A stretch of DNA of 24,000 nucleotides from contig NZ_CP064923.1 in NCBI RefSeq assembly GCF_018336915.1, positions 4,779,846-4,803,845 on the forward strand. Direction: 5' to 3'. Numbering within the stretch: position 1 is the first letter of the stretch; each line of letters begins with the position of its first letter. The notes beneath the pieces were generated by a model that was not told the origin of the DNA, did no database searches, and saw nothing but the letters and a program-made list of their open reading frames with translations. Positions 407 to 24,000 of this stretch are shown here, piece by piece. Source of the DNA: Acaryochloris marina S15. GTDB lineage: Bacteria; Cyanobacteriota; Cyanobacteriia; Thermosynechococcales; Thermosynechococcaceae. The position numbers were made by a program, and so were the translations under genes.

Positions 407-2183
407 ATTAATCCGACATTCAGCAGGTACTAACCATCAAGGGATAATTTTGAGGTTGTCTCTCAACGCAAGTCCATGTATTCACCTCAAGAGATAGACG
501 TTCAGGATATTGACCATCTCGGTATTATTGCCGGTATCGTCGATGAGATCGGCATTGTCGAAATAGTGGATCGATTATTAGGTACTCACGAGCAAGAGAA
601 TGTTAGTTGTGGTCAAGTTGTCAAAGCCCTGATTCTAAATGGTATGGGCTTTTTGAGTGCTCCATTGTACTTATTTAGTGAGTTTTTCGAAAGCAAAGCA
701 ACCGAGCACTTACTCGGTCAAGGTGTACTGCCAGAGCACCTCAACGATACCCGTATCGGTCGAGTCCTCGACAAGCTCTATGCCTATGGTGTGACCCAGA
801 TATTTATCCATGTGGCAATGGCAGTCGTTCAGAAATTCGATGTAGCTCTAAGGTGTGCGCATCTAGATGCGACAAGCCTTAGTGTTGAGGGGCAATACTT
901 AGATAAACCACAGGTTGAGGCGTCAGACGAATCCCCCTCTGCACCTGAGTCCCCCTCCCCTGCACTGGCTGAATCAGAGGAGCCGATACCCGTGAAAATC
1001 ACCTACGGCTACTCACGGGACAATCGTCGTGATCTCAAGCAGTTTGTATTGAACCTACTGGTGAGTGGGGACGGGGGTATTCCTTTATTTTTACAAGTGG
1101 GCAACGGTAATGATGCGGACAAAAGTACGTTTGTGCCTATCATCCATGAATTTAAGCAACAGTGGAGTCAGCAACAGCCAGAGGTGATTGTTGCTGATAG
1201 TGCCCTCTACAGTGCCGACAATCTGCAAGCATTAGGAAGTACATCTTGGATTAGCCGAGTTCCAGCAAGTTCAACGGCAGCCCAAGACTTATTACAAGGG
1301 CTGCCGGGTTCACAGTTTCACCCCAGTGCTCTCAACGGCTATAGCTTTGTCGAAGTATGTAGTACCTATGGAGAGATTCAACAACGGTGGCTGGTGGTTG
1401 AAAGTAAAGCTCGCAGAGACTCTGGACTCAAACAAGTGCAAAAGCGGATTGATCAGGCGTTTAGCCAAAAAACTACTGCACTTAAAACCCTCTGCAAACA
1501 GACCTTCTTGTGCCCTGCAGATGCTTTAGCTGCAGCCCAAGATTTTGGCAAAATCCTCAGGTATCACACCCTTGACGATCTCAAAATCCACAAAAAACCT
1601 CATTATTCAAAGGCTGGACGACCGACAAAAGCAACGGTTGTGACTCACTACACCTATTCTATTGAGGCTACCTTAACCCTCAATGAGCCAGTCATCGAAC
1701 GCTATCGGCGGCAAGCAGGTCGTTTCATCTTAGCCACCAATCTCTTGGAACAAGAGCAATGGAGCAATGATGATATTCTGCGCGAGTATAAGAACCAGCA
1801 GGCGTGTGAAGGAGGCTTTCGCTTTATCAAAGATCCACTCTTCTTTGCCTCTAGTGTTTTCCTGAAGACACCTCGGCGTATCGCTGCCTTAGCCATGATC
1901 ATGGCCTTGTGTTTGATGGTCTACAGCTTAGGACAACGACAGTTAAGAAATGCACTAGAACAAGTACAAACAACTCTCCCTAATCAGAAGGGGAAACAAA
2001 CTATGAAACCTACGTTACGTTGGATTCTCCAATGCTTTCAGGCCGTCCATTTAGTTTGGCTTGATGGTGCCAAGCATCTCATCAAGCTCAACAGCAGGCA
2101 GCAACTTATCTTGCCGTTCCTTGGGAAGGGCTGTAAAAAATATTATCTGCTCTGCTAGCTAGCCTGCTGAATGTAGGATTAAT
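407..2183 (+). mobile_element. IS1634-family (IS4 superfamily) insertion sequence
   Basis: Terminal inverted repeats: ATTAATCCGACATTCAGCAGG at 407-427, versus the reverse complement of 2163-2183 (ATTAATCCTACATTCAGCAGG), 20/21 identical. They enclose a single 560-aa DDE transposase ORF. No clean target duplication abuts these ends. An AACCTT hexamer occurs at 401-406 and 2195-2200, so the right end could instead be 2194. Confidence 0.85.
476..2158 (+). CDS. IS1634/IS4-family DDE transposase
   Basis: 560-aa ORF. The N-terminus (DIDHLGIIAGIVDEIGIVEIVDRLLG...GQVVKALILNGMGF) and the central/C-terminal regions (VADSALYS, RFILATN, YKNQQACEGGFRFIKDP) are typical of IS1634-group transposases. It is flanked by the IRs. 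Confidence 0.9.
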   Translation: MYSPQEIDVQDIDHLGIIAGIVDEIGIVEIVDRLLGTHEQENVSCGQVVKALILNGMGFLSAPLYLFSEFFESKATEHLLGQGVLPEHLNDTRIGRVLDKLYAYGVTQIFIHVAMAVVQKFDVALRCAHLDATSLSVEGQYLDKPQVEASDESPSAPESPSPALAESEEPIPVKITYGYSRDNRRDLKQFVLNLLVSGDGGIPLFLQVGNGNDADKSTFVPIIHEFKQQWSQQQPEVIVADSALYSADNLQALGSTSWISRVPASSTAAQDLLQGLPGSQFHPSALNGYSFVEVCSTYGEIQQRWLVVESKARRDSGLKQVQKRIDQAFSQKTTALKTLCKQTFLCPADALAAAQDFGKILRYHTLDDLKIHKKPHYSKAGRPTKATVVTHYTYSIEATLTLNEPVIERYRRQAGRFILATNLLEQEQWSNDDILREYKNQQACEGGFRFIKDPLFFASSVFLKTPRRIAALAMIMALCLMVYSLGQRQLRNALEQVQTTLPNQKGKQTMKPTLRWILQCFQAVHLVWLDGAKHLIKLNSRQQLILPFLGKGCKKYYLLC

Positions 2184-4823: not shown

Positions 4824-5756
4824 TCAATGTAGTTTGACGCGCGGATCCACCGCAGCAATGAGCAAATCCGTCAGAAGATTAAACAGTGCATAGGTCATCG
4901 TGATATACATCGTCATCCCTTTGAGTACGGGGAAATCACCATTATTAATGGCTGTAATCATCAAATCGCCTAAGCCAGGAATACTAAAAAATCGCTCCAT
5001 TAAGAACGAGCCCAATATTAAGAAGGGAACCGCCACGATAGTAAAAGTCAGGATGGGAATCATGGCGTTTTTGAGAATATGGATAAAGAGGATACTGCGT
5101 TCGCTTACCCCTTTAGCCCGAGCCGTACGAACATAATTAGCCTGCATCTCATTCAGAAAGATCGTTCTATAGATGCGCACATCTGGGCCAATGGATACCA
5201 GGATAATAATCAGCCACGGTAAGGCCAGATAAGGAAGTGCATCCCATCCTGGCGCATAGCCATTGATGGGAAACCACTCAAACTCATAGGCCAGAAAATA
5301 CTGCATGGCAATGATATAAACCAAGTAAGAGAAACTCATGGAAATCACCGCTGTGGCCGTTGAAAAGCGATCAATCCAGGTATCTCGGTAGTAAGCAATC
5401 ATCATTGCGATCGCAATATTCAATACCAAACCAAAAACAAAAGGTGGTAGCGTCAAGCTCAGAGACACCAACGCCCCACTAGCAAACGCTTCACTCAAAA
5501 CCTCGCCCGTAAAGTAAGACTCTCCATAATTAAAGGTGACAATTTGCCCCAGAAAGCTAATGAACTGCCTCCATAGGGGCTGATCCAATCCCCAAAGCGC
5601 TTCTAGATCCGCAATCGCTTGCGGTGTGGCATGTTGTCCTAAAGCCACTCTAACGGGGTCTTCCCCAGCAGCGGTGAATAACACAAAAACTAAAACAGCA
5701 ACCCCAAAAATGGTGGGAATGATATAGAGGAGGCGGCGAATGATATACCCAACCAT
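4824..5756 (-). CDS. ABC transporter permease, DppB/OppB-like
   Basis: 310 aa. N-terminus MVGYIIRRLLYIIPTIFGV and EAA-loop region YVRTARAKGVSERSILFIHILKNA are typical of DppB/OppB. The start overlaps the binding-protein stop (TAATG at 5754-5758). Confidence 0.9.
   Translation of the reverse strand: MVGYIIRRLLYIIPTIFGVAVLVFVLFTAAGEDPVRVALGQHATPQAIADLEALWGLDQPLWRQFISFLGQIVTFNYGESYFTGEVLSEAFASGALVSLSLTLPPFVFGLVLNIAIAMMIAYYRDTWIDRFSTATAVISMSFSYLVYIIAMQYFLAYEFEWFPINGYAPGWDALPYLALPWLIIILVSIGPDVRIYRTIFLNEMQANYVRTARAKGVSERSILFIHILKNAMIPILTFTIVAVPFLILGSFLMERFFSIPGLGDLMITAINNGDFPVLKGMTMYITMTYALFNLLTDLLIAAVDPRVKLH
5407..5414. repeat. HIP1 (GCGATCGC) palindrome, one of seven in the window
   Basis: GCGATCGC occurs at 5407, 8065, 8832, 12360, 16516, 17056 and 22731. 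Such over-representation is a hallmark of many cyanobacterial genomes. Confidence 0.7.
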
Positions 5757-7570
5757 TACTTCAGTCCTTCAGCCTTCATTTCTGTATCAATATCCAGAAA
5801 TTTAGCAGTCGATCCCAACATCAGGTTCGGCTTGGAATTCAGCAGCCATTTCTGGCGCATCCCTACACTAATAGGTGCTTTCAAAAAGACCACTGGAACA
5901 TCTGCTTTCAGTAACAACGCCATCTTTTCAATAATCTGATTACGCTCTGATCCGGCAGGCATCCGTCGCATCTGCTCATACAGTCGATCAAATTCAGGGT
6001 TTTGGTAAGAGCCATCATTGGGTCCCGGCGCTTTATTAGGACCATAGAAGAGTTGATAGAAGTTCTCGGCATCGGGATAGTCGGCTCTCCACCCCCCACT
6101 GGCTAGCTGAAAACTGCCTCCTTCCTTACGACCTAAATAGTCAGAGAAGGATAGAAATTCACCCTTTAACTGAATGCCAGATTTAGCCAGTTGCGCCCGC
6201 AGAAACTCATGATTCTGACGGGTAATATTATCTTGTGATCCATATAGGATAACGACAGGAGGAAGTCCTTTCCCCTCTGGATATCCAGCTTCTTTTAACT
6301 TGGCTTTGGCCTTTTGCAAGTTGTGAGAATACCATTGGACCGAAACGGACTGCTCACTCCCCGCAATCGGTAGCGGCACGATGGTATTAAGGGTATGGCC
6401 ACGACCATTTTCCATTTTCTCAATATAGGCTGGAGTATCCAGGGCATAGGCTAAGGCTTGACGTAGCACCTTATTTTGGCCAAAGACTTTATCTCTAAAG
6501 TTAATAGTGATGTAAAAAGAGGAGAGTGCATCAACGGAGGAAATATTAAATTGCTTAGCAAACTTACCCTTGAGCTGAAACTCATTGCTCACTTTTTCAG
6601 CCATTTTGGTGAAATTATCCCGATCAATACCAATGGAGTCCAACTCTCCACTCAGAAATTTGAGCATTCGAGGCTGCGCTTCTTCGATCAGGGGAATTCG
6701 AACTTCGTCAACAAAAGGGAGCTGTTCTCCTGCGTTGGTGAGTAGACCCTGGCTTTGATCGTCCGGATCTCCTTCAGTGGGATAGGTGCCATGGTAGTTG
6801 GGGTTTTTCTTAAGCACCATCACCCCTTTGCGCGGATTTTTAGCCAAGGTAAAGGGGCCAGTCCCGACAGCATGATGTTCTAATTTACGGCCATACTTCT
6901 CAACGGCTTCCTTTGGCACAATCGACAATGCATTGGTAGCAAAAGACATGAGTAACAATGGATCAGGCTCAATCATCACAATCTTAAAGGTGTACTCATC
7001 GACCTTTTCTAGACCAGCAATATTCTCCTGGTCATAATCTAGATCCTTTTGTTGACGGGTTTTTTCCCGAAACTCATCCAGCCCCTTAATTCGATTTTGA
7101 AGTAGTGCTGGATAACTTTGGGGATTGACGTTCACGTCTGCAAATCGCTTGATCGTGAACAGGACATCATCTGCTGTCAGTTCTCGCCCTTTCCCGCCTG
7201 AGAAACACGGATCATCATGAAACTTGATACCTTTGCGAAGTTTGAACGTGTAGGTGAGCTTATCCTCTCCTATCTCAGGCATAGACTCTAAAAGATTTGG
7301 GGTTAACTCATAGGGACGTTTGAGATAGTGATAGTCCAAGAGAGGGTCATAGATATGACTAATGATTCGGGAAGATGCTGCATCAAACTGTTTAGGTGGA
7401 TCGAGGCTCCTATAGACATCCCCCCGATAAGAATCCAATACTTTGACATCGGTATTCCCCACACCGTCTCGTGGGCGACACCCAAGGGGCACTGCCACTG
7501 TGGCGATAAGTAAGGCAGACAAAACTAATTGGGGTGCTTTTTGCCAGATTGAAATTCTCTGTACAGCCAT
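5756..7570 (-). CDS. ABC transporter substrate-binding lipoprotein, family 5 (peptide/nickel)
   Basis: Family-5 SBP-like sequence throughout. The likely start is the ATG at 7570 (MAVQRISIWQKAPQLVLSALLIATVAVPLGC), giving a signal peptide plus lipobox. The track start at 7621 adds 17 unlikely residues. Confidence 0.85.
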   Translation of the reverse strand: MAVQRISIWQKAPQLVLSALLIATVAVPLGCRPRDGVGNTDVKVLDSYRGDVYRSLDPPKQFDAASSRIISHIYDPLLDYHYLKRPYELTPNLLESMPEIGEDKLTYTFKLRKGIKFHDDPCFSGGKGRELTADDVLFTIKRFADVNVNPQSYPALLQNRIKGLDEFREKTRQQKDLDYDQENIAGLEKVDEYTFKIVMIEPDPLLLMSFATNALSIVPKEAVEKYGRKLEHHAVGTGPFTLAKNPRKGVMVLKKNPNYHGTYPTEGDPDDQSQGLLTNAGEQLPFVDEVRIPLIEEAQPRMLKFLSGELDSIGIDRDNFTKMAEKVSNEFQLKGKFAKQFNISSVDALSSFYITINFRDKVFGQNKVLRQALAYALDTPAYIEKMENGRGHTLNTIVPLPIAGSEQSVSVQWYSHNLQKAKAKLKEAGYPEGKGLPPVVILYGSQDNITRQNHEFLRAQLAKSGIQLKGEFLSFSDYLGRKEGGSFQLASGGWRADYPDAENFYQLFYGPNKAPGPNDGSYQNPEFDRLYEQMRRMPAGSERNQIIEKMALLLKADVPVVFLKAPISVGMRQKWLLNSKPNLMLGSTAKFLDIDTEMKAEGLK

Positions 7571-10546: not shown

Positions 10547-10660
10547 TAGTGTAGCGAGTTAGATAGATAGCGAGCTTGTTCTTGTCTTGAGCAACTCAGA
10601 CCAATGCAAGTCGGCTTCTTTAGGTCGAACCGACCTCTGCCTGATTGCCTAAATCAGAGG

Positions 10661-12415
10661 TCATTCTCTCACCTCTCGAATATCATGAATATTCCACGTT
10701 ACTTTGCCTAAAGCCGTATATTGGGTGCCTTCAAAGTCATTTCGGACTGCTGCTAGGGCCAACGGATTAATCAGATAAATAAAGGGTAAGTACTCCTGGG
10801 CAATCTGTTGAGTCTCCGCATAAATCGCTTTGCGTTTGGCCTCATCGATCTCTTGAGCACCTTGAATATAGAGATCGTCAATCTTCTGTTCCCAGTCGCT
10901 AACCGTAAAGCCTTGGATGGGTTCACTAGGGGGCTGGGGTTTTTGATTAAACATATGTAGGCCCCCTTCTGGAGACCAGACATTCGCACCCGTATTGGGT
11001 TCTAAACCACCCGTTAACCCCAACAAAGCGCAGTCCCAATCTAATGAGTCACTCAATTTATCAACCATCGTGTTGAAGGCAATGGGGGTATAGTCCACTT
11101 TTATGCCGACTTTCGATAAATCTTGCTTAATTTGGGCTCCTAATGTACTACCTGCAGGGGCCATCAGCGTAAAACGAACTGGATTATCCTTGTCATCAAA
11201 AAGTTGTCCTTTATTTTTGGTGGTAAACCCAGCGTCTTTCAGAAGTTGCTTGGATTTCTCCGGATCATAGTTGTAAACCTTCAGGCCTTCTTCAGGAGAT
11301 AGGTAATAAGGACTTTGAACCGATATCGACGAATTTTGGGGTAAACCTAGTCCTTGATAGGTATTAGCCAGCATTCGCTCTCGATCAATGGCATAGGCAA
11401 CAGCTTGGCGAAATTTGACGTTATTAAACCATCGCGACTTCACAGGGTTGACTAGAGGCTTGTTGTTTCTGCGTCCTCGATTGAGGTTAAAGAGAATAAA
11501 GGTCGTGCCAAAATCAGGCCCCCCTTCATAGATGGTGAAGTTACCAGCCTTTTCTTCCCGCTTCAGGAGCGAAAACGTACTGGCCCGCACCCCTACAGAA
11601 TCTAATCCACCCGAGCGGAATTGTAGAAGAGCCGTATCGGGAGATTCGACAATTTTCCAAATAATGCGCTCAATATTCCCGTTGGCACGACCAGGGATTT
11701 GATAGCGCCAATAAAACTGGTTGCGTCGAAACACGACTCGCTGGTTGGTTTCGTAGGATTCGAGCTGGTAAGGCCCATTGACAATAATTTCCCTGGGGTC
11801 CGTATCGACCCCCCAAGCAGAAATGAATTGGGGATTGCCTTTGCGATCTGGCGTATCCACCAATTTCTTGAGGGCATGGGCCGGCAAAATATTAACGGCC
11901 CCAGCAGTCCGCAGAAATGGGGCAAAGGGTTCCGGAATGGAGAACTCTACTCGCCGGTCATCTAGTTTTCTGACCTTGGGCAAGGCCCGACTTTTACCAA
12001 TTCTGAGAACATCGCGAGTATCAGTAGGAATAGCTTCATTCAGATAGACATCGTTATAGGAAAAAACAACATCATCTGCTGTTAAAGCAACCCCATCTGA
12101 CCATTTCAGATTAGGTCGGAGGGTAAAGATAATTGTGAGTTTATCGGCAGAGAATTCCCAAGACTCCGCAAGGGCAGGCTCAATCTCGCCTGTAAGACCA
12201 TTCTGGGTCGTTAATCCTTCATAAATCAAGCCGAAGACATTGTTGGCTTCTTGACTTTGGGAAGAATTAAACGTTTTAGGGGCACTCAGCAGGGTATCTA
12301 CATACTGGGGCACCCGTGCCGTTTGGGTTTTGAATTGGGAGAGGCTACAGCCAGGGAGTGCGATCGCAACCACCAATACCAAACTCAAAGCCACCCACCG
12401 ACGCAGAAAAGCCAT
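10661..12415 (-). CDS. Second ABC substrate-binding lipoprotein, family 5 (peptide/nickel), orphan
   Basis: Lipoprotein signal MAFLRRWVALSLVLVVAIALPGCS and a family-5 SBP body. There are no adjacent permease or ATPase genes. Confidence 0.85.
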   Translation of the reverse strand: MAFLRRWVALSLVLVVAIALPGCSLSQFKTQTARVPQYVDTLLSAPKTFNSSQSQEANNVFGLIYEGLTTQNGLTGEIEPALAESWEFSADKLTIIFTLRPNLKWSDGVALTADDVVFSYNDVYLNEAIPTDTRDVLRIGKSRALPKVRKLDDRRVEFSIPEPFAPFLRTAGAVNILPAHALKKLVDTPDRKGNPQFISAWGVDTDPREIIVNGPYQLESYETNQRVVFRRNQFYWRYQIPGRANGNIERIIWKIVESPDTALLQFRSGGLDSVGVRASTFSLLKREEKAGNFTIYEGGPDFGTTFILFNLNRGRRNNKPLVNPVKSRWFNNVKFRQAVAYAIDRERMLANTYQGLGLPQNSSISVQSPYYLSPEEGLKVYNYDPEKSKQLLKDAGFTTKNKGQLFDDKDNPVRFTLMAPAGSTLGAQIKQDLSKVGIKVDYTPIAFNTMVDKLSDSLDWDCALLGLTGGLEPNTGANVWSPEGGLHMFNQKPQPPSEPIQGFTVSDWEQKIDDLYIQGAQEIDEAKRKAIYAETQQIAQEYLPFIYLINPLALAAVRNDFEGTQYTALGKVTWNIHDIREVRE

Positions 12416-14144: not shown

Positions 14145-16247
14145 ATGATGCTAGGCATCCAACCATTTAGAGCGGCTTTAACCCCACTCCAAAAAGCTTT
14201 TACCTGTATTTGTTGTTCATCCATGTACCTGACTCGTCTTGTTCACTCTAAGACCCTGCTGTTATTGCGAGAGGCATTTACATCCCTCTTGCCTGTCGTC
14301 TTAGTGATGAATATTATCGTTTTGCTGTCAGGTCTGTCTGGCCTGCTGGCATCTCAGAGCGTGGTAGCAGAGAGTTTCATCAACGGGAATGAAGTCAGCC
14401 GACTCTATTTCTTTTTAGTCCCGTTTTTTCTCAACATTTCCCTGAGCACCCTAATGGCCAAGGAGAAAGATCTGGATCAGGTGAGTACTGTTCTGATCTC
14501 AGTCGTTTGTTTTTTGCGGGTGTCGGGCTTTTTGTTTATCGATTCGACAGGCCAAATCCTCTCGTTTCAAGGTTCAGTGCTCACTAGTATTCCAGCCACA
14601 CTGGTAGCAGTCACACTACTCCATTACTTCAGTCGATTCTCTGCTCTGCAATTTTTTAGAGGTCGATCTGAGGTGAGTCCAGCCCTCCAAAGAACCCTGA
14701 ACCTCCTGATTCCAGGTCTCCTAACAGTGTTGTGTTTTGAGTTAATCGGCCAAGGATTTAGGCTATTTTTTAAGACTGGTCTGTTCAGTTTTTTATTCGA
14801 AATCCTACCTAAATTGCAAGCCACCCAAGAAGTCATTCTCTTTAAGCTAATTTCTCAACTTTCTTGGTTTTTCGGGATTCATGGCGAGTATAGTGCCGAT
14901 GGTCTATTTCGAATTTTGAATGCGATTCCATCCTCTGAAGCTGGCAGTATTCACTTCAAAGTTTTGCATGATGTTTTTATGAATATTGGAGGGTCTGGCT
15001 CCACTTTCGTCGTGCCATTGGCGATTCTTTTTCTACCCGGATCTACCCAATTCAAACCCATTGCGCAGCTGAGTCTGCCATTCGCACTCTTCAATGTGAA
15101 TGAGATTTTATTGTTCGGACTTCCGATTATTCTAAATCCACTCTTTCTGGCACCGTTTCTGTTAGCTCCGCTGGTCAATATGGCTATTGCGCTGACTGCA
15201 ATTCACTGGGGAGCATTCACCATTAGTGCGACTGCCATAAACTGGATGTCTCCGCCTTTATATAGTGCCTATGCGGCCTCTGGAGGATCGGGAGGGGCGG
15301 TACTGACCCAGTTCCTTTGCATCGTTATCGATATGGGTATCTACTATCCATTTCTGGTTCTGGCAAAGCAGCAGTCCAATACTCCACGTGCGCTCCGCAA
15401 GCTCTTGGATGGTGATGCCTACCAGTTTGTGAATAGAGAAATCAATCGCCAAGAAGAGCGGCGTTTTATGACTCAGAAAATGGATCAAGTCCAAGACATG
15501 GAAGAGGTCCAACGCTTACTACAGCAACTCAAAGGCGGGCAGTTTCTCCTCTACTTTCAGCCTAAGGTAGATGCCCAGTCGAAAGCACTCGTTGGCTTAG
15601 AAACGTTGCTGCGTTTCCAAGATGCAGGGGGTAACATTGTCCCCCCTACGTTTTTGCCGATCCTCTACCAACAGGGCTTATCTAAGGCTATAGATCAAAA
15701 AGTGCTGTCGCTTGTTTTTGACCAGATCAAACAGTGGCGAGGGAATGGTCAAGGATTTCCTCAGATTAGTATTAACCTGGATAAACATTTTTTATTAGAT
15801 CCACCCTCTGTAAAGACTTTGATTGCTAAAGCCAGACAAGAAGGGATTTGCTTTGAACTAGAAATTACTGAACATACCTACACTTCGGAAGTGAAATCTT
15901 TGGCATCAGTGGTTCGTGACCTTCGATCTGCTGGGCATCAAGTTTCAATTGATGATTTTGGGGCAGGCTATTCTTCCCTCACAACCTTAGTTTCTCTGGA
16001 AGCAGATTCGGTCAAATTAGACCGCAAGCTGGTCGTCGCCCCTGAAGGGGAAATCCAGCGGGGACGAGTGTTACTAGAGTCTAGTGTGAAGCTCTGTCAT
16101 GACTTAGGATTTTCTGTGGTGGCAGAAGGAATTGAAAACTTGTCTCAGTTACAACTAGTGCAACACTGTGGAGTAGATTTCGTGCAAGGGTATTACACAG
16201 GCAAACCCATGCCTGCTAATCAGGTCAGTCGCCTATTTCAGGCGTAA
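14145..16247 (+). CDS. Membrane protein: PTS EIIC (lactose/cellobiose family)-like domain fused to a C-terminal EAL c-di-GMP phosphodiesterase domain
   Basis: The N-terminal ~430 aa are polytopic, with WFFGIHG, GGSGST, NEILLFGLPIILNP and YYPFLVLAKQQ. These match the ChbC/CelB-type EIIC signatures (WFFGIHG, GGSGAT, NEPILFGLPIIMNP). The C-terminus carries the EAL motifs ETLLR, ISINL, ELEITE, IDDFGAGYSSL, VKLDR, AEGIEN and QGYY. Confidence 0.85.
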   Translation: MMLGIQPFRAALTPLQKAFTCICCSSMYLTRLVHSKTLLLLREAFTSLLPVVLVMNIIVLLSGLSGLLASQSVVAESFINGNEVSRLYFFLVPFFLNISLSTLMAKEKDLDQVSTVLISVVCFLRVSGFLFIDSTGQILSFQGSVLTSIPATLVAVTLLHYFSRFSALQFFRGRSEVSPALQRTLNLLIPGLLTVLCFELIGQGFRLFFKTGLFSFLFEILPKLQATQEVILFKLISQLSWFFGIHGEYSADGLFRILNAIPSSEAGSIHFKVLHDVFMNIGGSGSTFVVPLAILFLPGSTQFKPIAQLSLPFALFNVNEILLFGLPIILNPLFLAPFLLAPLVNMAIALTAIHWGAFTISATAINWMSPPLYSAYAASGGSGGAVLTQFLCIVIDMGIYYPFLVLAKQQSNTPRALRKLLDGDAYQFVNREINRQEERRFMTQKMDQVQDMEEVQRLLQQLKGGQFLLYFQPKVDAQSKALVGLETLLRFQDAGGNIVPPTFLPILYQQGLSKAIDQKVLSLVFDQIKQWRGNGQGFPQISINLDKHFLLDPPSVKTLIAKARQEGICFELEITEHTYTSEVKSLASVVRDLRSAGHQVSIDDFGAGYSSLTTLVSLEADSVKLDRKLVVAPEGEIQRGRVLLESSVKLCHDLGFSVVAEGIENLSQLQLVQHCGVDFVQGYYTGKPMPANQVSRLFQA

Positions 16248-18944: not shown

Positions 18945-18952
18945 ATTCATTG
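18945..18952. repeat. Target-site duplication (left copy) of the IS1-family element
   Basis: ATTCATTG immediately abuts the left IR. An identical octamer sits at 19856-19863. Confidence 0.85.
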
Positions 18953-18961
18953 GGTCGTGCA

Positions 18962-19462
18962 TCAAACAATTGTGGGGTAGGTGAGTATGTCATCCCAATG
19001 CCAAGCTCGCGAGGCTAGATCAGCACGTTGTGCCGCCGTTGTTTTAAGCCGACTGTGTGTCCAAATCCAATTGAAATAGCTGACCACTAATCGAGCAGTG
19101 ACTTTGGTTTGCGCCCACACTTTGCCAAATTTGTTCTGGCGTCGATGCCATCGACCACTGTGCTGTCGAATAATGCCATTGGTGCGTTCGAGTCGTTGAG
19201 TTCTGTCCTTGCCAATGTAATGGTCAATCTCCCAAGGCAACACTCTTTCGTAACCACCCCAATCGTCGCTATTCCAGTCCTTGCAATCGGTCTTACCTTC
19301 AGTGCTAGTCACCAGTTCATTCAATAATGAATCGGTGTGCTTGCCCACACGACACGAGAGGATCACGCCGCTTGTGTTTGCCAAGGTAATCGCCATCCAA
19401 CAATCACCCATCTCTAGCTCATGGGGAAGACAGTGTTTTTGCTTTTTTTCACAAAGGACCAC
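18962..19462 (-). CDS. IS1-family transposase catalytic part (InsB-like frame; expressed as an InsAB fusion)
   Basis: The -1 frame relative to InsA has no convincing independent start (GTG in the track). The IS1-type DDE region includes WMAITL..., DDWGGYERV and IGKDRTQRLERTNGIIRQ. Confidence 0.85.
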   Translation of the reverse strand: MVLCEKKQKHCLPHELEMGDCWMAITLANTSGVILSCRVGKHTDSLLNELVTSTEGKTDCKDWNSDDWGGYERVLPWEIDHYIGKDRTQRLERTNGIIRQHSGRWHRRQNKFGKVWAQTKVTARLVVSYFNWIWTHSRLKTTAAQRADLASRAWHWDDILTYPTIV

Positions 19463-19791
19463 ATTTCATCTGCACTGACATCCTCCGTTTCAACGGCTTG
19501 CACTTGGCCATTATGGAGTTGCTGAGATCGTTGGCTAGCAGCTCTTACTAGAGAGACTACAGTGTTGTAAGCCAGGCCACTGGTCCGAGTGATACCTCGA
19601 AGACTACTCCCTTCTGCATGGGCTTGGAGAACTTGTCGGACCTGCTCTGGACTCACCTGACGACGATAGTAAAGGGTATCAAAGCGTTCAGTAAAGGTCT
19701 GCTGGCACTCAGGACAACGGTATCGTTGAAGCATGTTGGGCATCTTGCCATGCTTGTGTGCTTTGGAATGACCGCATAGTGGGCATTGCAT
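19414..19791 (-). CDS. IS1-family InsA-like protein (zinc finger + HTH), upstream frame of the transposase
   Basis: MQCPLCGHSKAHKHGK...YRCPECQQTF zinc-finger pair, an HTH region and ADEMWSFVKK at the frameshift window. Confidence 0.85.
   Translation of the reverse strand: MQCPLCGHSKAHKHGKMPNMLQRYRCPECQQTFTERFDTLYYRRQVSPEQVRQVLQAHAEGSSLRGITRTSGLAYNTVVSLVRAASQRSQQLHNGQVQAVETEDVSADEMWSFVKKSKNTVFPMS
19443..19449 (-). promoter_or_regulatory. Programmed -1 ribosomal frameshift site (A7 run)
   Basis: The minus strand reads TTT GTG AAA AAA AGC. A -1 slip joins ...EMWSFVKK to KQKHCLPHELEMGDCWMAI of the downstream ORF, as in IS1 InsAB' production. Confidence 0.7.
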
Positions 19792-19855
19792 GGGTAGGTT
19801 AGAAGCTGAGCTGAGCCTCTAGTATACTCAACCCACAATTACTTGAGGCACGACC

Positions 19856-19863
19856 ATTCATTG
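19856..19863. repeat. Target-site duplication (right copy) of the IS1-family element
   Basis: ATTCATTG immediately follows the right IR. Confidence 0.85.
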
Positions 19864-19989: not shown

Positions 19990-20331
19990 ATGGCAAAACT
20001 ACCCGAGAGTCTCCTATCCACAATTTTTGAGTTGCTTCAGAAACTTGCTAAAGGGATTGAGGAGGCATCTGCAATTGAGTGGACTCTCTACGAGCAGCAT
20101 GGTGAAACAGCTGAAACAATGGAAGAGTTAAGAGAACTACAGAATGCTAGAGAGCGTCTGGTGTCCCCTTACTCACGTTTGAACACATTATTGCTTAGAA
20201 TTTTGGAGTCCCAACCTATAGCTGACCCTGCTATGCTGGAATTATTGATCCAAACAGTAAGTCAAGCTCAAGCCTCAACTGATGCGTCTTGGGCCAGTGT
20301 TCAAGAGGTCAAACGAGTTTGGAGGCTTTGA
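19990..20331 (+). CDS. Hypothetical small acidic helical protein (113 aa)
   Basis: ORF only, with no recognisable domain. Its stop overlaps the start of the next ORF. Confidence 0.55.
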   Translation: MAKLPESLLSTIFELLQKLAKGIEEASAIEWTLYEQHGETAETMEELRELQNARERLVSPYSRLNTLLLRILESQPIADPAMLELLIQTVSQAQASTDASWASVQEVKRVWRL

Positions 20332-20507
20332 TGGCAGATAACAAAACAGCGATTCCAAGCATTGAAGAAAGGCAACAGGCTCTTGAAATGCTAAGAGTGA
20401 GCAACCAACAGTTGGAACTCACCGCCATAGCATTAGACAAACTGATAACCACAGTAGAGACAGGTCTAAGCCGACAATATCACCAGCGCGTGGAGAAAAG
20501 CCTCTAG
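20331..20507 (+). CDS. Hypothetical small helical protein (58 aa), translationally coupled to the upstream ORF
   Basis: I prefer the ATG at 20331 (MADNKTAIPSIEERQQ...) because of the TGATG stop/start overlap and a GGAGG at 20321-20325. The track start at 20289 lies inside the upstream gene. Confidence 0.5.
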   Translation: MADNKTAIPSIEERQQALEMLRVSNQQLELTAIALDKLITTVETGLSRQYHQRVEKSL

Positions 20508-20517
20508 CAGCTCTACT

Positions 20518-20588
20518 TCCTAACAAGTTTGTCTCAGGGGCGCAGGTGGAATTTGAAAAATCTCCATAGAGGGTGCGCATTGTTAATG
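20518..20588 (-). other. attC-like recombination site (P3), 71 bp
   Basis: The minus strand reads CATTAAC...GTTAGGA. The TAACAA/TTGTTA, GCGCA/TGCGC and TGGA/TCCA pairings form an imperfect hairpin. It shares the central ATTTGAAAA with P2 in the same orientation. It lies 34 nt after the stop of the 20623-21162 ORF. Confidence 0.5.
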
Positions 20589-20622
20589 CCGTACACTCCG
20601 TATAAGCGAGACACACTAAGGT

Positions 20623-21162
20623 CTAATAGTATTTTTCAGGGAAACCATAAAGCAGTTCACTCGGATAGGCTGTATCAACTAGAAATTCAGAAACTTCGAC
20701 ATCAAATAATTGGCTGATCGAATACTTATCGAGGTATTCCTTGATTTGACTTGGATTTGAAAGATCGTAGTCATTGATGTATTGATCAACAATTTCACTG
20801 CGCAAAGAATGCAGCCATCTCTGAGGAAAATCACTGTCTAAGTCTGAATCAAAAAAAGGAATTAATAAGAAGATAGGATCCAGCTTTTCTGAAGATTTAC
20901 TCTGCAATATTGGCAGAGGTTGCAGAATACATATTCCTCTATTGATACGAGCATCCGACCAATGTTCGAATTTCGGTAGTGGCGGGAAAAATCTACTAAT
21001 CCCTGTGTCGCAGGCGGCTCGCCATTCAGCCATACCAGATGTATAGACTAACGTTTTTTGATTGACTACATTTGTTAATGCCAGCTCTCTAAGTTGAGCG
21101 AGAGAGATAGGGCCTACAACTTCTTTGCCAACCATATAATGCCAAGCATCATTGTCGCTCAT
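20623..21162 (-). CDS. GYF_2 (DUF4339)-domain protein with an uncharacterised C-terminal domain
   Basis: The N-terminus WHYMVGKEVVGPISLAQLRELALTNVVNQKTLVYTSGMAEWRAA fits the bacterial GYF_2 pattern. I do not recognise the rest. Confidence 0.7.
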   Translation of the reverse strand: MSDNDAWHYMVGKEVVGPISLAQLRELALTNVVNQKTLVYTSGMAEWRAACDTGISRFFPPLPKFEHWSDARINRGICILQPLPILQSKSSEKLDPIFLLIPFFDSDLDSDFPQRWLHSLRSEIVDQYINDYDLSNPSQIKEYLDKYSISQLFDVEVSEFLVDTAYPSELLYGFPEKYY

Positions 21163-21354
21163 ATCAGCATTTAATTGATTTTGGTAACAGCTTCACGAAG
21201 TGCCATCAAAGGTACGAATGGCTATCAGAAAAGTTCAATAAATCGCTCAAGTCTAAGCTTTCCTTGCACAGGATGAATTAGATAACGCAACAACAAAGAG
21301 TGACTTATAAAACTATAGGTGATCTCCCATCTACCCCAAACACATAGAAAATAT

Positions 21355-21870
21355 TTAGAACGTCACATACAGCCCACTCTGTCGCGCAAGGCAACTTCTG
21401 AGGAATGAAAGGTACTCTATCGTCAAGGAATTATCCGACTTAGATAGAAGTTCAAAGGACTGGCTTACCTCATCTGGTGATTGAAAATACGATCCCATTT
21501 TCCCTGGATCAAACGGATTGAAAGAAGGTCCAACGGTTTGACCCAACAGAGCGGCTTGGGATGAGTGAGTTAAACAATCGCCACAATCAAGCCATGCAGA
21601 ACCGATACCAAAATCTTTGATTGGATCATAGAAGCGGGTAATCGCAAAATCTCCAAGTGTGTGAACATCATGAACATTTTCTACTTGTGTTCGCCAATCT
21701 AAATTGAGAGGTTCCCCTTCATATGGATCAACAAGGAATCGCACATTTTCTTCTATGTATGAGTGCAGTGGAACTACATCATTTGATGCAAGAGCATTAT
21801 GTAAAATCGTGAGAAAGTCAGTCTTAAAAAACTGCCAATCAAATTCGAAAGCTTTATGCTCCATCGACAT
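21355..21870 (-). CDS. Hypothetical protein (171 aa), no recognisable domain
   Basis: ORF only, A+T-rich. It starts 17 nt after the attC-like site P1. Confidence 0.6.
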   Translation of the reverse strand: MSMEHKAFEFDWQFFKTDFLTILHNALASNDVVPLHSYIEENVRFLVDPYEGEPLNLDWRTQVENVHDVHTLGDFAITRFYDPIKDFGIGSAWLDCGDCLTHSSQAALLGQTVGPSFNPFDPGKMGSYFQSPDEVSQSFELLSKSDNSLTIEYLSFLRSCLARQSGLYVTF

Positions 21871-21886
21871 AAATCAAAGTTGGATC

Positions 21887-21976
21887 GGTTAACGCCCAAA
21901 ATCACCGGGCCGCTGCTAGCGACGCTCCATTTAAATCTGACTGAATCGGCGGCTCCGGTGCATGTATTTGTTAGGC
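21887..21976 (-). other. attC-like recombination site (P1), 90 bp
   Basis: The minus strand reads GCCTAAC...GTTAACC. The TAA stop of the TIR ORF lies within the first box. CACCGGGCCGC (21903-21913) pairs with GCGGC-T-CCGGTG (21949-21960), leaving one extrahelical base. TAAC/GTTA close the hairpin. It is homologous to P2 over most of its length. Confidence 0.65.
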
Positions 21977-22822
21977 ATTTTTTACGCCGAGTGCAAAATC
22001 GAGTGCGCGCTGAAAACGGGATAAAGGGATTCCGTGCTCCGTTCGTTCTAAGTCAGACGAGTGATAGTTCAGCCAATGATATTTCTTCAACGCCTCTGGT
22101 GGTTCACAGTCTGTGTCCAACAAAACGGGAATAATGTAGATTTCGCCCTCTGGCACCTCCTCTGCGACCTCAACGCTCTTGCGCAGTTCTTTTTGAAAGT
22201 AGCCGCGCTTAGCTATTGCATTGGAAGAGAGCAGCGGCATAAACACCTGAGATCGACGAATAGCCCTTCGGATTTCAAGCCCCCAATCCTGGCCGGGAAT
22301 TAATGACTCTTCGTCGAACCAGAGTCGGTATCCCATTATCTTGAGTTTTTCGTAAATCGTACGGGCAATTTCCACGTCGACGCGCGAATAAGATAGGAAA
22401 ATCTGGTCGGAGCTGCGCTGGTGCCGTTCTCCCAATTCATCCACGTGTCTAAGAATCTCGTTGATCGCAGCATCTTCATCGCCATCAAAGTAAACAAGTC
22501 GTTCTCCAGCAAGATATTTCGGCGCACGGCTAACAAGCTTTTGTGTGGTGAGCAAGACGGTCCGATGGTCGTTGCCGTGACCAGTGAAAAAGGCAATCTC
22601 ACTTGCCACATTTGCGTACCATGTGGTGTGCAAACCAACAGCAACCAATGTGTCGGCATTCCGAATTGCTTTCGCGACGTCATCATCAACGAACGAAAAC
22701 TCGGAAAAATCGGCCCGGATTTGTTCACCAGCGATCGCTTGGTGTCCTGATTTTGTGATGCGCTGCGCAATCTTGAGAGCGAATTCCTTGTCGTAGTTGG
22801 TATGAGCGACGAAAACAATCAT
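21971..22822 (-). CDS. Tandem TIR-like / TIR-domain protein
   Basis: The C-terminal half is a clear TIR_2-type domain (IFLSYSRVDVEIARTIYEKLKIMGYRLWFDEESLIPGQDW...VFMPLLSSNAIAKRGYFQKELR...IIPVLLD), including the conserved Glu position. The N-terminal half (MIVFVAHTNYDKEFALKIAQRI...ADTLVAVG...WYANVASEIAF) looks like a second, divergent TIR/flavodoxin-like fold. Confidence 0.85.
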   Translation of the reverse strand: MIVFVAHTNYDKEFALKIAQRITKSGHQAIAGEQIRADFSEFSFVDDDVAKAIRNADTLVAVGLHTTWYANVASEIAFFTGHGNDHRTVLLTTQKLVSRAPKYLAGERLVYFDGDEDAAINEILRHVDELGERHQRSSDQIFLSYSRVDVEIARTIYEKLKIMGYRLWFDEESLIPGQDWGLEIRRAIRRSQVFMPLLSSNAIAKRGYFQKELRKSVEVAEEVPEGEIYIIPVLLDTDCEPPEALKKYHWLNYHSSDLERTEHGIPLSRFQRALDFALGVKNA

Positions 22823-22848
22823 CTGAATGCCTAAATATACTTATGAAT

Positions 22849-22949
22849 ACCTAACGTCTGGCATAATCGGGCCGCCGCGATTGATGCTCTATTTGAAAAC
22901 GTGTTGAAAACGTGCTGACGGGGGCTCCGCGTTCATGCCTTTGTTATGC
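22849..22949 (-). other. attC-like recombination site (P2), 101 bp
   Basis: The minus strand reads GCATAAC...GTTAGGT. The TAA stop of the upstream ORF lies within the first box. GGCAT/ATGCC and GC-rich pairings are present. There is an internal 11-nt tandem duplication TTGAAAACGTG x2 (22893-22914). It is homologous to P1. Confidence 0.65.
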
Positions 22950-23969
22950 GATATTGGAAAACATCTTGGGAGGCTCCTCATCGCTGTGGTCAATATTGAA
23001 CTTGGCGACTCCGTTATCATATGCAGTCCGGTAGTCGCTGCTGTTACCAATTGCGGTGTAGAATCCACTGGTAAACACTGTGGCCCCTGCATCGGAGATG
23101 ATTCCGGTCGCACCGATGGTGAATGGGACATCAGCGGACACACGCTCGGCCAATCCATCAGTTTCGCAGCACGAGAACAGGACGCATTCGAGCTTCTTTG
23201 CGAGCGGGCGAAGGAGCGCATGGAATAAATCGTAGCTCACAGCTTTAGTGGTACCATCCGATGATTCAAACAGAAATCCGCCTGTCTCCGTGCCAGAGCA
23301 CGACAAATGAAGGATTTCGGGATGGTGCAAAAGCAGTAATCGATCCAAGTCGTGGGCTTGCACGGCCCACTCTTGTTCAAGAACTATTTCACCAGATCGA
23401 CGTGCAGATTCGAGTGCCCGCGTAATTCGCCGCACCTCACAATCCATTCGAAGCCGATTCTCGTCAATCGGATTGGCACAGAGCACCAGTACCTTTCGTG
23501 CGGCTTTCCGCTGACCCCAATTTTGTAATTCTTGCCGAATCGTGAAGCATGCGGGACCGACCGCGGTCAATAAGTTTCCTTGGTCCGCACTGCGGTAAGC
23601 GGCAAAGGTCACACCATGGAGGTCACTGATAACGTCAGGCTTGGCACTTGCGTCGAAAACAGCAAATGTCCGTGAACGCCCGACGTGACCATAGAAAAGT
23701 CCAAGTTCAAAAAGAACGTTTCCGCGCGTAGTTCCGGTCTCCGCTCCGCGGCTAACAAGAGTATCGTCGCTGCGAAGAACGAAAATGCCGTAGTCGAATT
23801 GCTTGACGGTGTCCACCAACGTCTCAAGATAGCCATGCGATAGACTGAATACACCTTCGTTCCAAAGGACGACCTCGGCGGCGTCAGCGAGTTGGTGTTG
23901 GATCGCTCTGGCAACATCAAGCCCTTCAGACGACGACCCAATGAAGACTCGTGGTTTTTGTATTGTCAT
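22944..23969 (-). CDS. TIR-like (CAP12/Pycsar-effector-type, PF10137-like) N-terminal domain fused to a CHAT/caspase-like C-terminal domain
   Basis: The N-terminus RVFIGSSSEGLDVARAIQHQL...WNEGVF...LETL...FDYGIFVLRSDD...RGNVLFELGLFYGHVGRSRTF fits the TIR-like nucleotide-binding family. The C-terminus KVLVLCANPIDENRLRMDCEVRRI...ILHLSCSG...ECVLFSCCETDG...IGATGIISDAGATVFTSGFY matches the small CHAT-like module common in cyanobacteria (consensus ...HFSGHG...LNAC...). Confidence 0.8.
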   Translation of the reverse strand: MTIQKPRVFIGSSSEGLDVARAIQHQLADAAEVVLWNEGVFSLSHGYLETLVDTVKQFDYGIFVLRSDDTLVSRGAETGTTRGNVLFELGLFYGHVGRSRTFAVFDASAKPDVISDLHGVTFAAYRSADQGNLLTAVGPACFTIRQELQNWGQRKAARKVLVLCANPIDENRLRMDCEVRRITRALESARRSGEIVLEQEWAVQAHDLDRLLLLHHPEILHLSCSGTETGGFLFESSDGTTKAVSYDLFHALLRPLAKKLECVLFSCCETDGLAERVSADVPFTIGATGIISDAGATVFTSGFYTAIGNSSDYRTAYDNGVAKFNIDHSDEEPPKMFSNIA

Positions 23970-23979
23970 TTGTTCGATC

Positions 23980-24000
23980 GCATAACTATAATTAGCAGGC
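23980..24000 (-). other. attC-like site (P0), only the R' end is inside the window
   Basis: The minus strand shows GTTATGC at 23986-23980, 10 nt upstream of the ATG at 23969. It is the exact complement of the GCATAAC box (22949-22943) at the other end of the same unit. Confidence 0.4.

Follow-up and report, generated by a model that had tools for sequence, protein, structure and literature searches.

The right-hand end of a 24,000-nucleotide stretch of the Acaryochloris marina S15 chromosome (contig NZ_CP064923.1, positions 4,779,846 to 4,803,845 of the forward strand; the whole stretch is referred to as the window, and its first letter is position 1) can with high confidence be identified as the cassette end of a degenerate chromosomal integron at a fixed locus of this species, the Coq4-gnd locus. 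The element is a cluster of attC sites lacking an integron integrase (CALIN) plus a truncated intI gene, and it fits a known class of element. Read along the minus strand, its order would be truncated intI (divergently oriented), attI-type site, cassettes A and B, modules C1, C2 and D, an IS1-family insertion sequence (IS) and gnd. A and B would each consist of one promoterless open reading frame (ORF) followed by its own attC site (P2 and P1, respectively); C1, C2 and D would be older modules whose attC sites have eroded. A first-pass annotation of the DNA had proposed an integron-type cassette array on the minus strand of the last 3.5 kb, with no integrase in the window. Both parts of the proposal hold: the array is borne out by attC models, by junctions at G|TT and by an intI remnant, and no tyrosine recombinase was found among the window ORFs.

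Insertion of cassettes by IntI-driven recombination of attI with attC, at G|TT, is established integron biology. A circular cassette would be inserted by the IntI tyrosine recombinase joining attI to the folded bottom strand of the cassette's attC (here, the plus strand of the window). New cassettes would enter beside attI, each starting with the TTRRRY of its own attC. Entry at this point would make the attI-proximal cassettes the youngest; for the same reason they would be the foreign and strain-specific members of the array, the sole keepers of an intact attC, and the ones whose first bases complement their own R'' box. Corresponding Coq4...gnd loci of relatives were retrieved by exact-protein look-up. 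The locus is common to all strains retrieved (the window strain and those designated L004/5, L007/8, L009, L010 and L013-16), with 1-2 attC sites per strain, and intact attC sites are retained only by proximal cassettes: A and B, the first cassettes of other strains, and the first cassette of a second platform that lies beside leuS. The features of the window that carry this reading are the following (boxes are written as read on the minus strand).

23979..24000, minus strand: P0, putative attI-type junction; leader ...ctaattataG, then TTATGC of cassette A; crossover between G 23985 and T 23984; the leader runs on past the window.
22855..23984, minus strand: cassette A, 1130 bp; one ORF (22944-23969), 341 aa, N-terminal CAP12/Pycsar-type TIR domain.
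22849..22949, minus strand: P2, putative attC of cassette A; R'' GCATAAC, 5 nt, CAT, extrahelical G, stem, ATG, 6 nt, R' GTTAGGT.
21893..22854, minus strand: cassette B, 962 bp; one ORF (21971-22822), 283 aa, C-terminal TIR_2 domain.
21887..21976, minus strand: P1, putative attC of cassette B; R'' GCCTAAC, 5 nt, CAT, extrahelical G, stem CACCGG-A-GCCGC/GCGGC-CCGGTG, R' GTTAACC.

P1 and P2 are recognized by a covariance model built from 11 attC sites of class 1 integrons (aadA1, aacA4, VIM-2, IMP-34, dfrA14, arr-2, dfrA1, estX, psp, aadA2 and cmlA1, from R100 and six other plasmids) with the textbook pairing of R boxes, spacers and L boxes. Run with filters off on both strands of the window, this class 1 model matches P1 with 29.7 bits (E=1.9e-5) and P2 with 26.0 bits (E=1.6e-4), in each case full-length and on the minus strand; apart from these two it gives no match in the 24 kb, on either strand, at E <0.5. 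A second covariance model, built from 145 metagenomic attC sites that the class 1 model had found, assigns 50.6 bits to P1 (E=3.5e-10) and 51.8 bits to P2 (E=1.8e-10), with matches confined to the minus strand (P1 read on the plus strand reaches 9 bits). Applied to the other strains, the metagenomic model gives 58.5 bits for the attC of the cassette encoding a ThsB-like protein in L013 (MBIC11017), 30-34 bits for that of a cassette designated X, and 25.7 bits for that of the cassette encoding a 947-aa protein in L009. The first-pass annotation had staked its proposal on matches to an attC model; both models find P1 and P2, with all of the coordinates, the strand and the cores (GCCTAAC/GCATAAC ... 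GTTAACC/GTTAGGT) that it had assigned to them.

The details of the two sites agree with this identification. Core-to-core spans are 90 nt (P1) and 101 nt (P2), within the 57-141 nt that serve as a criterion for attC, and RYYYAAC/GTTRRRY cores are present. In both sites an unpaired G is the 9th nucleotide after AAC (unpaired position 16 of the model), and a G stands at this position in the attC sites of VIM-2, IMP, dfrA14, estX and cmlA1 also; the extrahelical bases, whose inspection had been recommended, are thus conserved at the class 1 position. A second bulged base of the P1/P2 attC family is the A in CACCGG-A-GCC. As had been described from first inspection, P1 and P2 share sequence in both arms, and A and B each have their stop codon within the R'' box (TAA, at 22946-22944 and 21973-21971, respectively). 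P1 and P2 are, as far as sequence can tell, bona fide attC sites on the minus strand.

Palindromes behind ORFs invite a more prosaic explanation, namely that P1 and P2 are terminators or members of a generic palindrome family, resembling repetitive extragenic palindromes (REP) or miniature inverted-repeat transposable elements (MITE), and have nothing to do with integrons. Both are indeed imperfect palindromes 3' of ORFs, no Rfam family matches at gathering thresholds (0/4227), and their folding is unremarkable: minimum free energies of the DNA are -13.6 (P1) and -14.1 (P2) kcal/mol, with z-scores of -0.7 and -1.1 relative to shuffled sequence; P1 folds end to end and the minimum-energy fold of P2 does not. 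(Thermodynamic folding was rejected as a discriminator because the z-scores are too weak. Of the long imperfect hairpins that had been claimed, the 11-bp stem of P1 with its one bulged A is real, and it is the folding z that is weak.) That a model trained on class 1 sites finds P1 and P2 specifically and strand-specifically is not expected of a generic family, nor is the presence of the same attC family in arrays beside intI in metagenomes, nor an array flanked by a conserved G|TT junction and the remains of an intI gene. Moreover, the repeats are not dispersed, as a family of that kind would be: neither model finds an attC copy outside the arrays in positions 1-20500 of the window and ~100 kb of flanking sequence of other strains (~120 kb of Acaryochloris chromosome in total). 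The generic-palindrome explanation is, on balance, barely credible.

The start of a cassette can be compared with its own R'', with which it would have been joined in the circle. Cassette A complements its R'' at 7/7 positions (GTTATGC/GCATAAC) and cassette B at 6/7 (GTTAGGT/GCCTAAC, the mismatch being a G-T wobble), exactly as the first-pass annotation had it. The 947-aa cassette of L009 scores 7/7 with an unusual pair (GTTGTGC/GCACAAC), as does the first cassette of the leuS platform in L148 (GTTAGCC/GGCTAAC); cassette X scores 5-6/7. For the R' box lying next to each attC, agreement drops to 3-5/7. Under a generous null of 1/16 per cassette for full complementarity, P is ~0.005 for at least three such cassettes among six (the authors' own arithmetic).

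Cassettes A and B are compositionally foreign and strain-specific, and would be recent captures. GC content and CpG observed/expected ratio are 0.523 and 1.29 for A, and 0.489 and 1.33 for B, to be compared with 0.470 and 0.72 for the rest of the chromosome and 0.400 and 0.83 for the C region; measurement thus confirms the contrast, noted at first sight, between GC/CpG-rich A and B and an AT-rich C. The 5' leaders, 15 and 32 nt, are as short as had been claimed. Cassette A is absent from every other strain fetched, B is likewise missing from the other strains, and exact-protein look-up of the cassette A and C1 proteins returned no record. A search with protein A of a genome-contig collection in which the window genome is not a representative yielded only a distant Deinococcales homologue (32% identity), and a search of metagenomes no match; the 90%-identity cluster of protein B has a single member, making it strain-specific. 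Nor was any match found by tblastn of 13 cassette proteins against 80 attC-bearing metagenome contigs.

Protein A matches Pfam PF10137 (E=2.3e-26) and the TIR effector/PycTIR models of PADLOC (E 1e-33 to 5e-43), and protein B matches Pfam PF13676 (E=4.5e-31) and PADLOC TIR models. To judge by these domains, A and B are probably TIR proteins of the type used as NAD-degrading anti-phage effectors, that is, compact defence genes. The predicted cassette content across strains (TIR effectors, a STAND NTPase, HigBA and Gp49/HI1420 toxin-antitoxin pairs, a nucleotidyltransferase) is typical of integrons.

P0 had been listed as the first of four attC-like elements. Six strains have its leader in common as far as G|TT, beyond which four different first cassettes follow (starting GTTATGC, GTTAGAC/GTTAGGC, GTTGTGC and GTTAGAC); a fifth first cassette follows the leader at the paralogous leuS locus. 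Conservation of a leader with divergence beginning after G|TT argues for reading P0 as an attI-type junction and not as an attC. The homology detected by blastn between the window strain and L004 ends at 23983 and resumes exactly at 21892, which is the TT of the P1 R' box. Cassette-boundary polymorphism among relatives, which the first-pass annotation had made a test of its proposal, is thus seen exactly at the G|TT of P0 and P1. Junctions at 23985/23984, 22855/22854 and 21893/21892 stand; for the one it had named at 20524/20523 this is not so, strain-to-strain homology breaking at 20588-20615 instead. The alternative that P0 is the R' box of an attC further upstream was rejected: there is no R'' within 84 nt upstream, and neither attC model matches the conserved leader in any strain. 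Of the four elements, then, P1 and P2 are retained as attC, P0 is attI-type, and P3 (considered below) fails both models.

Between the leader, ...ctaattataG|TT, and the beginning of the intI remnant lie ~230-300 nt. A second box, GTTARGA, is located 25-32 nt upstream of the crossover GTTA in the leader of every strain (window-equivalent position ~24010-24020; ~9025 in L004, ~5975 in L009 and ~7975 in L013), and may be likened to the accessory integrase-binding repeats of attI1. Neither promoters nor terminators were detected when the leader was scanned for them.

The sequence beyond the right edge of the window was pieced together from Logan contigs L001 (which extends 67 nt past the window) and L012 (which bears Coq4, QUY41852), both from one sample; these overlap by 21 nt and are both collinear with the leader of L004. 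(Insertion of an IS as the cause of the contig break was rejected in view of this overlap.) With IntI1 as query, tblastn detects a match in the leader of every strain, on the divergent strand, with 39-43% identity over residues 8-66 and E down to 3e-7, interrupted by in-frame stops. In the window strain the remnant lies at ~24298-24423 (window-equivalent), ~300-420 nt to the right of the window, comprises ~59 codons with a stop and a frameshift, and is partly annotated in GenBank as a 44-aa hypothetical protein, I1H34_21885. The remnants extend over IntI1 residues ~8-66 (up to 8-122 at the leuS locus), with stops or frameshifts, and the region of the IntI-specific domain has been deleted from them. 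They match the N-terminal positions of NCBIfam TIGR02249 (integron integrase) with E 1e-8 to 2.5e-38, far better than XerC/XerD.

The presence of intI-derived sequence and an attI-type junction to the right of 24000, together with the variation of first cassettes between strains, would also be accounted for by an intact, active integron whose functional integrase lies just beyond the window and drives cassette turnover in cis. The remnant in the window strain is, on the contrary, limited to its ~59 interrupted codons, and Coq4 starts at ~24620, ~620 nt from the window edge, so that there is no room for a whole intI gene of ~960 nt. The same truncation is found at 8/8 other loci examined, all database relatives of the remnant that were found are fragments of 44-123 aa, and none of the strains examined has a functional integrase next to the array. 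An intact integron is accordingly very improbable. The first-pass annotation, which expected the platform to the right of 24000 and advised looking there for a tyrosine recombinase with the IntI-specific insertion, was right about the attI-type leader and the intI-derived sequence; what the search found of the integrase is an N-terminal stub of 45-60 codons with stop and frameshift, followed by Coq4. With the adjacent integrase dead, the array would by now have ceased to change; only an integrase acting in trans, or exchange of segments with other strains by homologous recombination, could still alter it.

The gnd-proximal part of the array is made up as follows.

21335..21892, minus strand: module C1; one ORF (21355-21870), 171 aa, no known domain.
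20589..21268, minus strand: module C2; one ORF (20623-21162), 179 aa, GYF_2 domain (Pfam PF14237); bounds set by blastn.
20518..20588, strand not assigned: P3, attC-like palindrome with R cores that fails both attC models.
19990..20507, plus strand: module D; two overlapping ORFs, 113 aa and 58-72 aa, in the opposite direction to the array.
18953..19855, minus strand: IS1-family insertion sequence; InsA zinc ribbon ORF, A7 frameshift motif, DDE_Tnp_IS1 ORF.

C1 and C2 had been taken together as a single cassette, unit C. This assignment falls: C1 occurs without C2 in L004, and C2 without C1 in L009, and model search found no attC between the two. C1 is 92-95% identical in L004, L007 and L010, where it stands behind the attC of cassette X. 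Neither model matches downstream of C1, an old cassette in which an attC of its own can no longer be recognized. In the coding sequence of C2, both models give an R-box-only match at 21046-21080 (minus strand; 12-13 bits, E 0.3-0.5) that is kept in L007 and L010 as part of the C2 gene and was judged to be a chance match.

P3, the last of the four elements first proposed, cannot be upheld as an attC in either orientation. Its best score with the class 1 model is 1.6 bits, owed solely to the R boxes and obtained on the plus strand, and the metagenomic model does not match it; its AAC reads ATC in L009, and its arms are asymmetric in the wrong direction for a minus-strand attC. P3 may be a fully eroded site, or part of the oppositely oriented D module. 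In MBIC11017 a 59-nt palindrome, GCATAAC...GTTATGG, lies just upstream of gnd (3036-3094 of L013, plus strand), in opposite orientation to the array; its score (12.7 bits, E=1.3) is not significant, and like P3 it is gnd-proximal and better on the plus strand.

Module D is intact in two strains (the window strain, and L009 at 10656-11173, minus strand) and is reduced to a remnant of 140 nt in L007 and L006. Its ORFs have no Pfam or PADLOC match; the pair might be toxin-antitoxin-like. Copies of an 8-bp target duplication, CAATGAAT, bound the IS1-family element (18945-18952 and 19856-19863), and GGTCGTGC begins its terminal inverted repeats. The other strains lack the element at this site, and Logan contig L001 breaks inside it.

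From the attI side towards gnd, the arrays of the strains read as follows.

Window strain: A, B, C1, C2, D, IS.
L004/L005: X (ORFs of 96, 39 and 139 aa), C1.
L007/L008 (NIES-2412): X, C1, C2, Gp49/HI1420 toxin-antitoxin pair, remnant of D.
L009: 947-aa STAND/TPR protein, HigBA, C2, D.
L010: X, C1, C2, a further segment, Lnu/ANT(2'')-like nucleotidyltransferase.
L013 (MBIC11017, CP000828): ThsB-like TIR, HigBA, several ISs.

The last module before gnd in L010 (9490-10038, plus strand) encodes a PF10706 nucleotidyltransferase of the aminoglycoside-2''-adenylyltransferase/Lnu type. It did not lead to integron cassettes of the aadB type; its relatives are Lnu-like, and with plasmid-borne Lnu and ANT proteins it shares only 30-34% identity.

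The second, degenerate platform was found in another Acaryochloris strain (L148, Logan SRR12447970), at 5280-6583, beside leuS. It has an intI remnant (IntI1 residues 8-122), the same leader, ...ctaattataG|TTAGCC, and a GC-rich first cassette of 132 aa with an attC of 53 bits; beyond this lie small ORFs and toxin-antitoxin pairs without detectable attC.

Several observations weigh against the identification of the locus as a degenerate integron. Only two attC sites are detectable in the window strain, and P1-P3 fold with z -0.3 to -1.3, not significantly better than shuffled sequence. The ThsB cassette of MBIC11017 fits the circle-junction rule poorly (4/7). A scan of the L004 leader for sigma-70-like promoters returned 0 sites (cyanobacterial promoters may not fit the consensus). 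The join of L012 to L001 is a 21-nt overlap with collinearity to other strains, not one sequenced molecule. Finally, the breakpoints of C1, C2 and D do not coincide with attC cores, and it follows that deletion, IS activity and homologous exchange have also shaped the locus.

This last point can be taken further, by regarding the interval between Coq4 and gnd as a variable defence-island hot spot that is remodelled mainly by homologous recombination of its flanks, ISs and deletions, with the two attC-bearing cassettes as mere passengers. The toxin-antitoxin modules of the relatives have no detectable attC and, like C1, C2 and D, have breakpoints off attC cores; attC sites are half or truncated in L007 and L009; and there are ISs in the locus in the window strain and in MBIC11017. 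Moreover, the integrase truncation looks common to all strains, yet their first cassettes differ. What a hot spot leaves unexplained is the G|TT junctions, the circle-junction complementarity, the intI remnant and the attI leader, as well as the duplication of that leader beside leuS with an attC-bearing first cassette of its own. As a full account of the locus it has only a slight chance of being correct, and its processes are best seen as a later overlay on the degenerate integron rather than as an alternative to it.

The disparity between a common truncation and differing first cassettes bears on one further idea. A sequence ...LDTIV(T/K)VH... follows the intI remnant in each strain, and all strains appear to share one ancestral intI truncation. 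That they nonetheless carry, at the same G|TT, different and foreign first cassettes with pristine attC sites lends some plausibility to the notion that the loci are orphan attI landing pads refilled by an integrase supplied in trans (for example, from an Acaryochloris plasmid), repeatedly with phage-defence genes. The second, paralogous attI beside leuS shows this pattern too. The first-slot genes encode TIR proteins in the window strain, a ThsB-like TIR protein in MBIC11017 and a STAND NTPase in L009. If delivery in trans were true, the first, best-expressed slot would be the one to be refilled repeatedly with phage-defence genes. This notion is tentative and on present evidence rather unlikely to be right.

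The degenerate integron of A. marina draws on an attC family that is found elsewhere. The left-arm motif TAACAAANNNATGNACCGGAGCC is common to P1 and to the ThsB attC of MBIC11017 and has an exact match on at least 120 metagenome contigs. On the 80 such contigs that were fetched, the class 1 model finds 145 attC sites of 23-49 bits in co-oriented arrays (13 co-oriented sites on one contig, L033). IntI homologues are encoded on 3/80 of these attC-bearing contigs, and two of the proteins are 41-55% identical to the Acaryochloris intI remnants. The abundance of the family links this cyanobacterial array with a large pool of cassettes in the environment. (Marine, sediment and soil metagenomes abound in the P1/P2 family, whose stem is CACCGG-A-GCC...GGC-CCGGTG: at least 120 contigs match a single 19-base motif; one metagenomic attC, on L057, is by eye ~93% identical to that of the ThsB cassette of MBIC11017.)

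The rest of the window consists of housekeeping genes (oligopeptide ABC transport, peptidase, cytochrome-c peroxidase, gnd) and a gene for an IS4-like transposase at the left window end (476-2158, plus strand; 560 aa, DUF4277 + DDE_Tnp_1). The gnd, TIR, GYF and cytochrome-c peroxidase proteins of the window are identical to GenBank QUY41841-QUY41849. A 700-aa protein encoded at 14145-16247 (plus strand) combines a phosphotransferase system (PTS) EIIC membrane domain with a C-terminal EAL domain (cyclic di-GMP phosphodiesterase), an architecture that seemed unusual; it is kept at the same position in all Acaryochloris strains fetched.

When compared with the attC sites of class 1 integrons, P1 and P2 have the same R''-UCS-L''...L'-UCS-R' register (UCS, unpaired central spacer) and the same position of the extrahelical base: R'' (7 nt) + 5 + 3 + extrahelical base, as in aadA1, VIM-2, IMP, dfrA14, arr-2, estX and cmlA1. 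The left arm of the arr-2 attC, GCATAACAAAGCCATCAAACCGG, nearly equals that of P2, GCATAACAAAGGCATGAACGCGG. Unlike class 1 attC sites, P1 and P2 belong to an environmental family and are chromosomal, with no transposon or plasmid and no resistance genes. Superintegrons of the Vibrio type are different again: their cassettes number from tens to hundreds and their IntIA is active, whereas the array of the window is tiny and its integrase dead.

A CALIN is defined by at least two attC sites <4 kb apart with no IntI nearby, and loss of the integrase is one proposed origin (Cury et al. 2016, PMC4889954). P1 and P2 are 973 nt apart, start to start, with no intact or functional IntI adjoining them; the array also has an adjoining IS, as do 38% of CALINs (PMC4889954). 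That study, which also reported integrons in Cyanobacteria, found intI pseudogenes near 15/279 CALINs by a screen for the C-terminal domain, and regarded an integron as sedentary if it occupies the same locus in all genomes of a species or has >19 attC sites (PMC4889954). The Acaryochloris pseudogene differs in comprising only N-terminal codons (45-120 of them), for which reason a C-terminal-domain screen would miss it, and in that its attI-type junction is still recognizable. A CALIN can thus keep a recognizable attI and an N-terminal intI stub that screens of that kind would pass over.

The closest natural analogue is the integron at the ilvD locus of Xanthomonas, which occupies a fixed locus across the genus and whose intI is mostly inactivated by stops, frameshifts or large deletions (bioRxiv 10.1101/2025.06.18.660453). 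Its arrays differ by lineage and contain many singleton cassettes (bioRxiv 10.1101/2025.06.18.660453, and Gillings et al. as cited there). Acaryochloris shares with it the fixed locus, the inactivated intI and the arrays that vary by lineage; it differs in belonging to the Cyanobacteria, in its shorter arrays (1-2 intact attC sites), in the truncation of intI in all strains seen, and in having a second, paralogous platform beside leuS. A full-text literature search found no paper describing integrons in Acaryochloris, and an integron platform at a fixed chromosomal locus is now documented across the strains of this genus that were retrieved.

Sedentary chromosomal integrons have been described as stores of cassettes that defend against phage (Darracq et al. 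2024, bioRxiv 10.1101/2024.07.02.601686). The Acaryochloris arrays appear similar in holding compact, single-gene defence components, to judge by their predicted products (TIR, ThsB-like TIR, STAND NTPase, toxin-antitoxin). The attI-proximal TIR and STAND cassettes of several strains fit this view of the integron as a defence reservoir, and are small candidates for tests. None of these findings overturns current understanding; set beside the systems just considered, the Acaryochloris element is genuine, but an ordinary representative of a kind already known.

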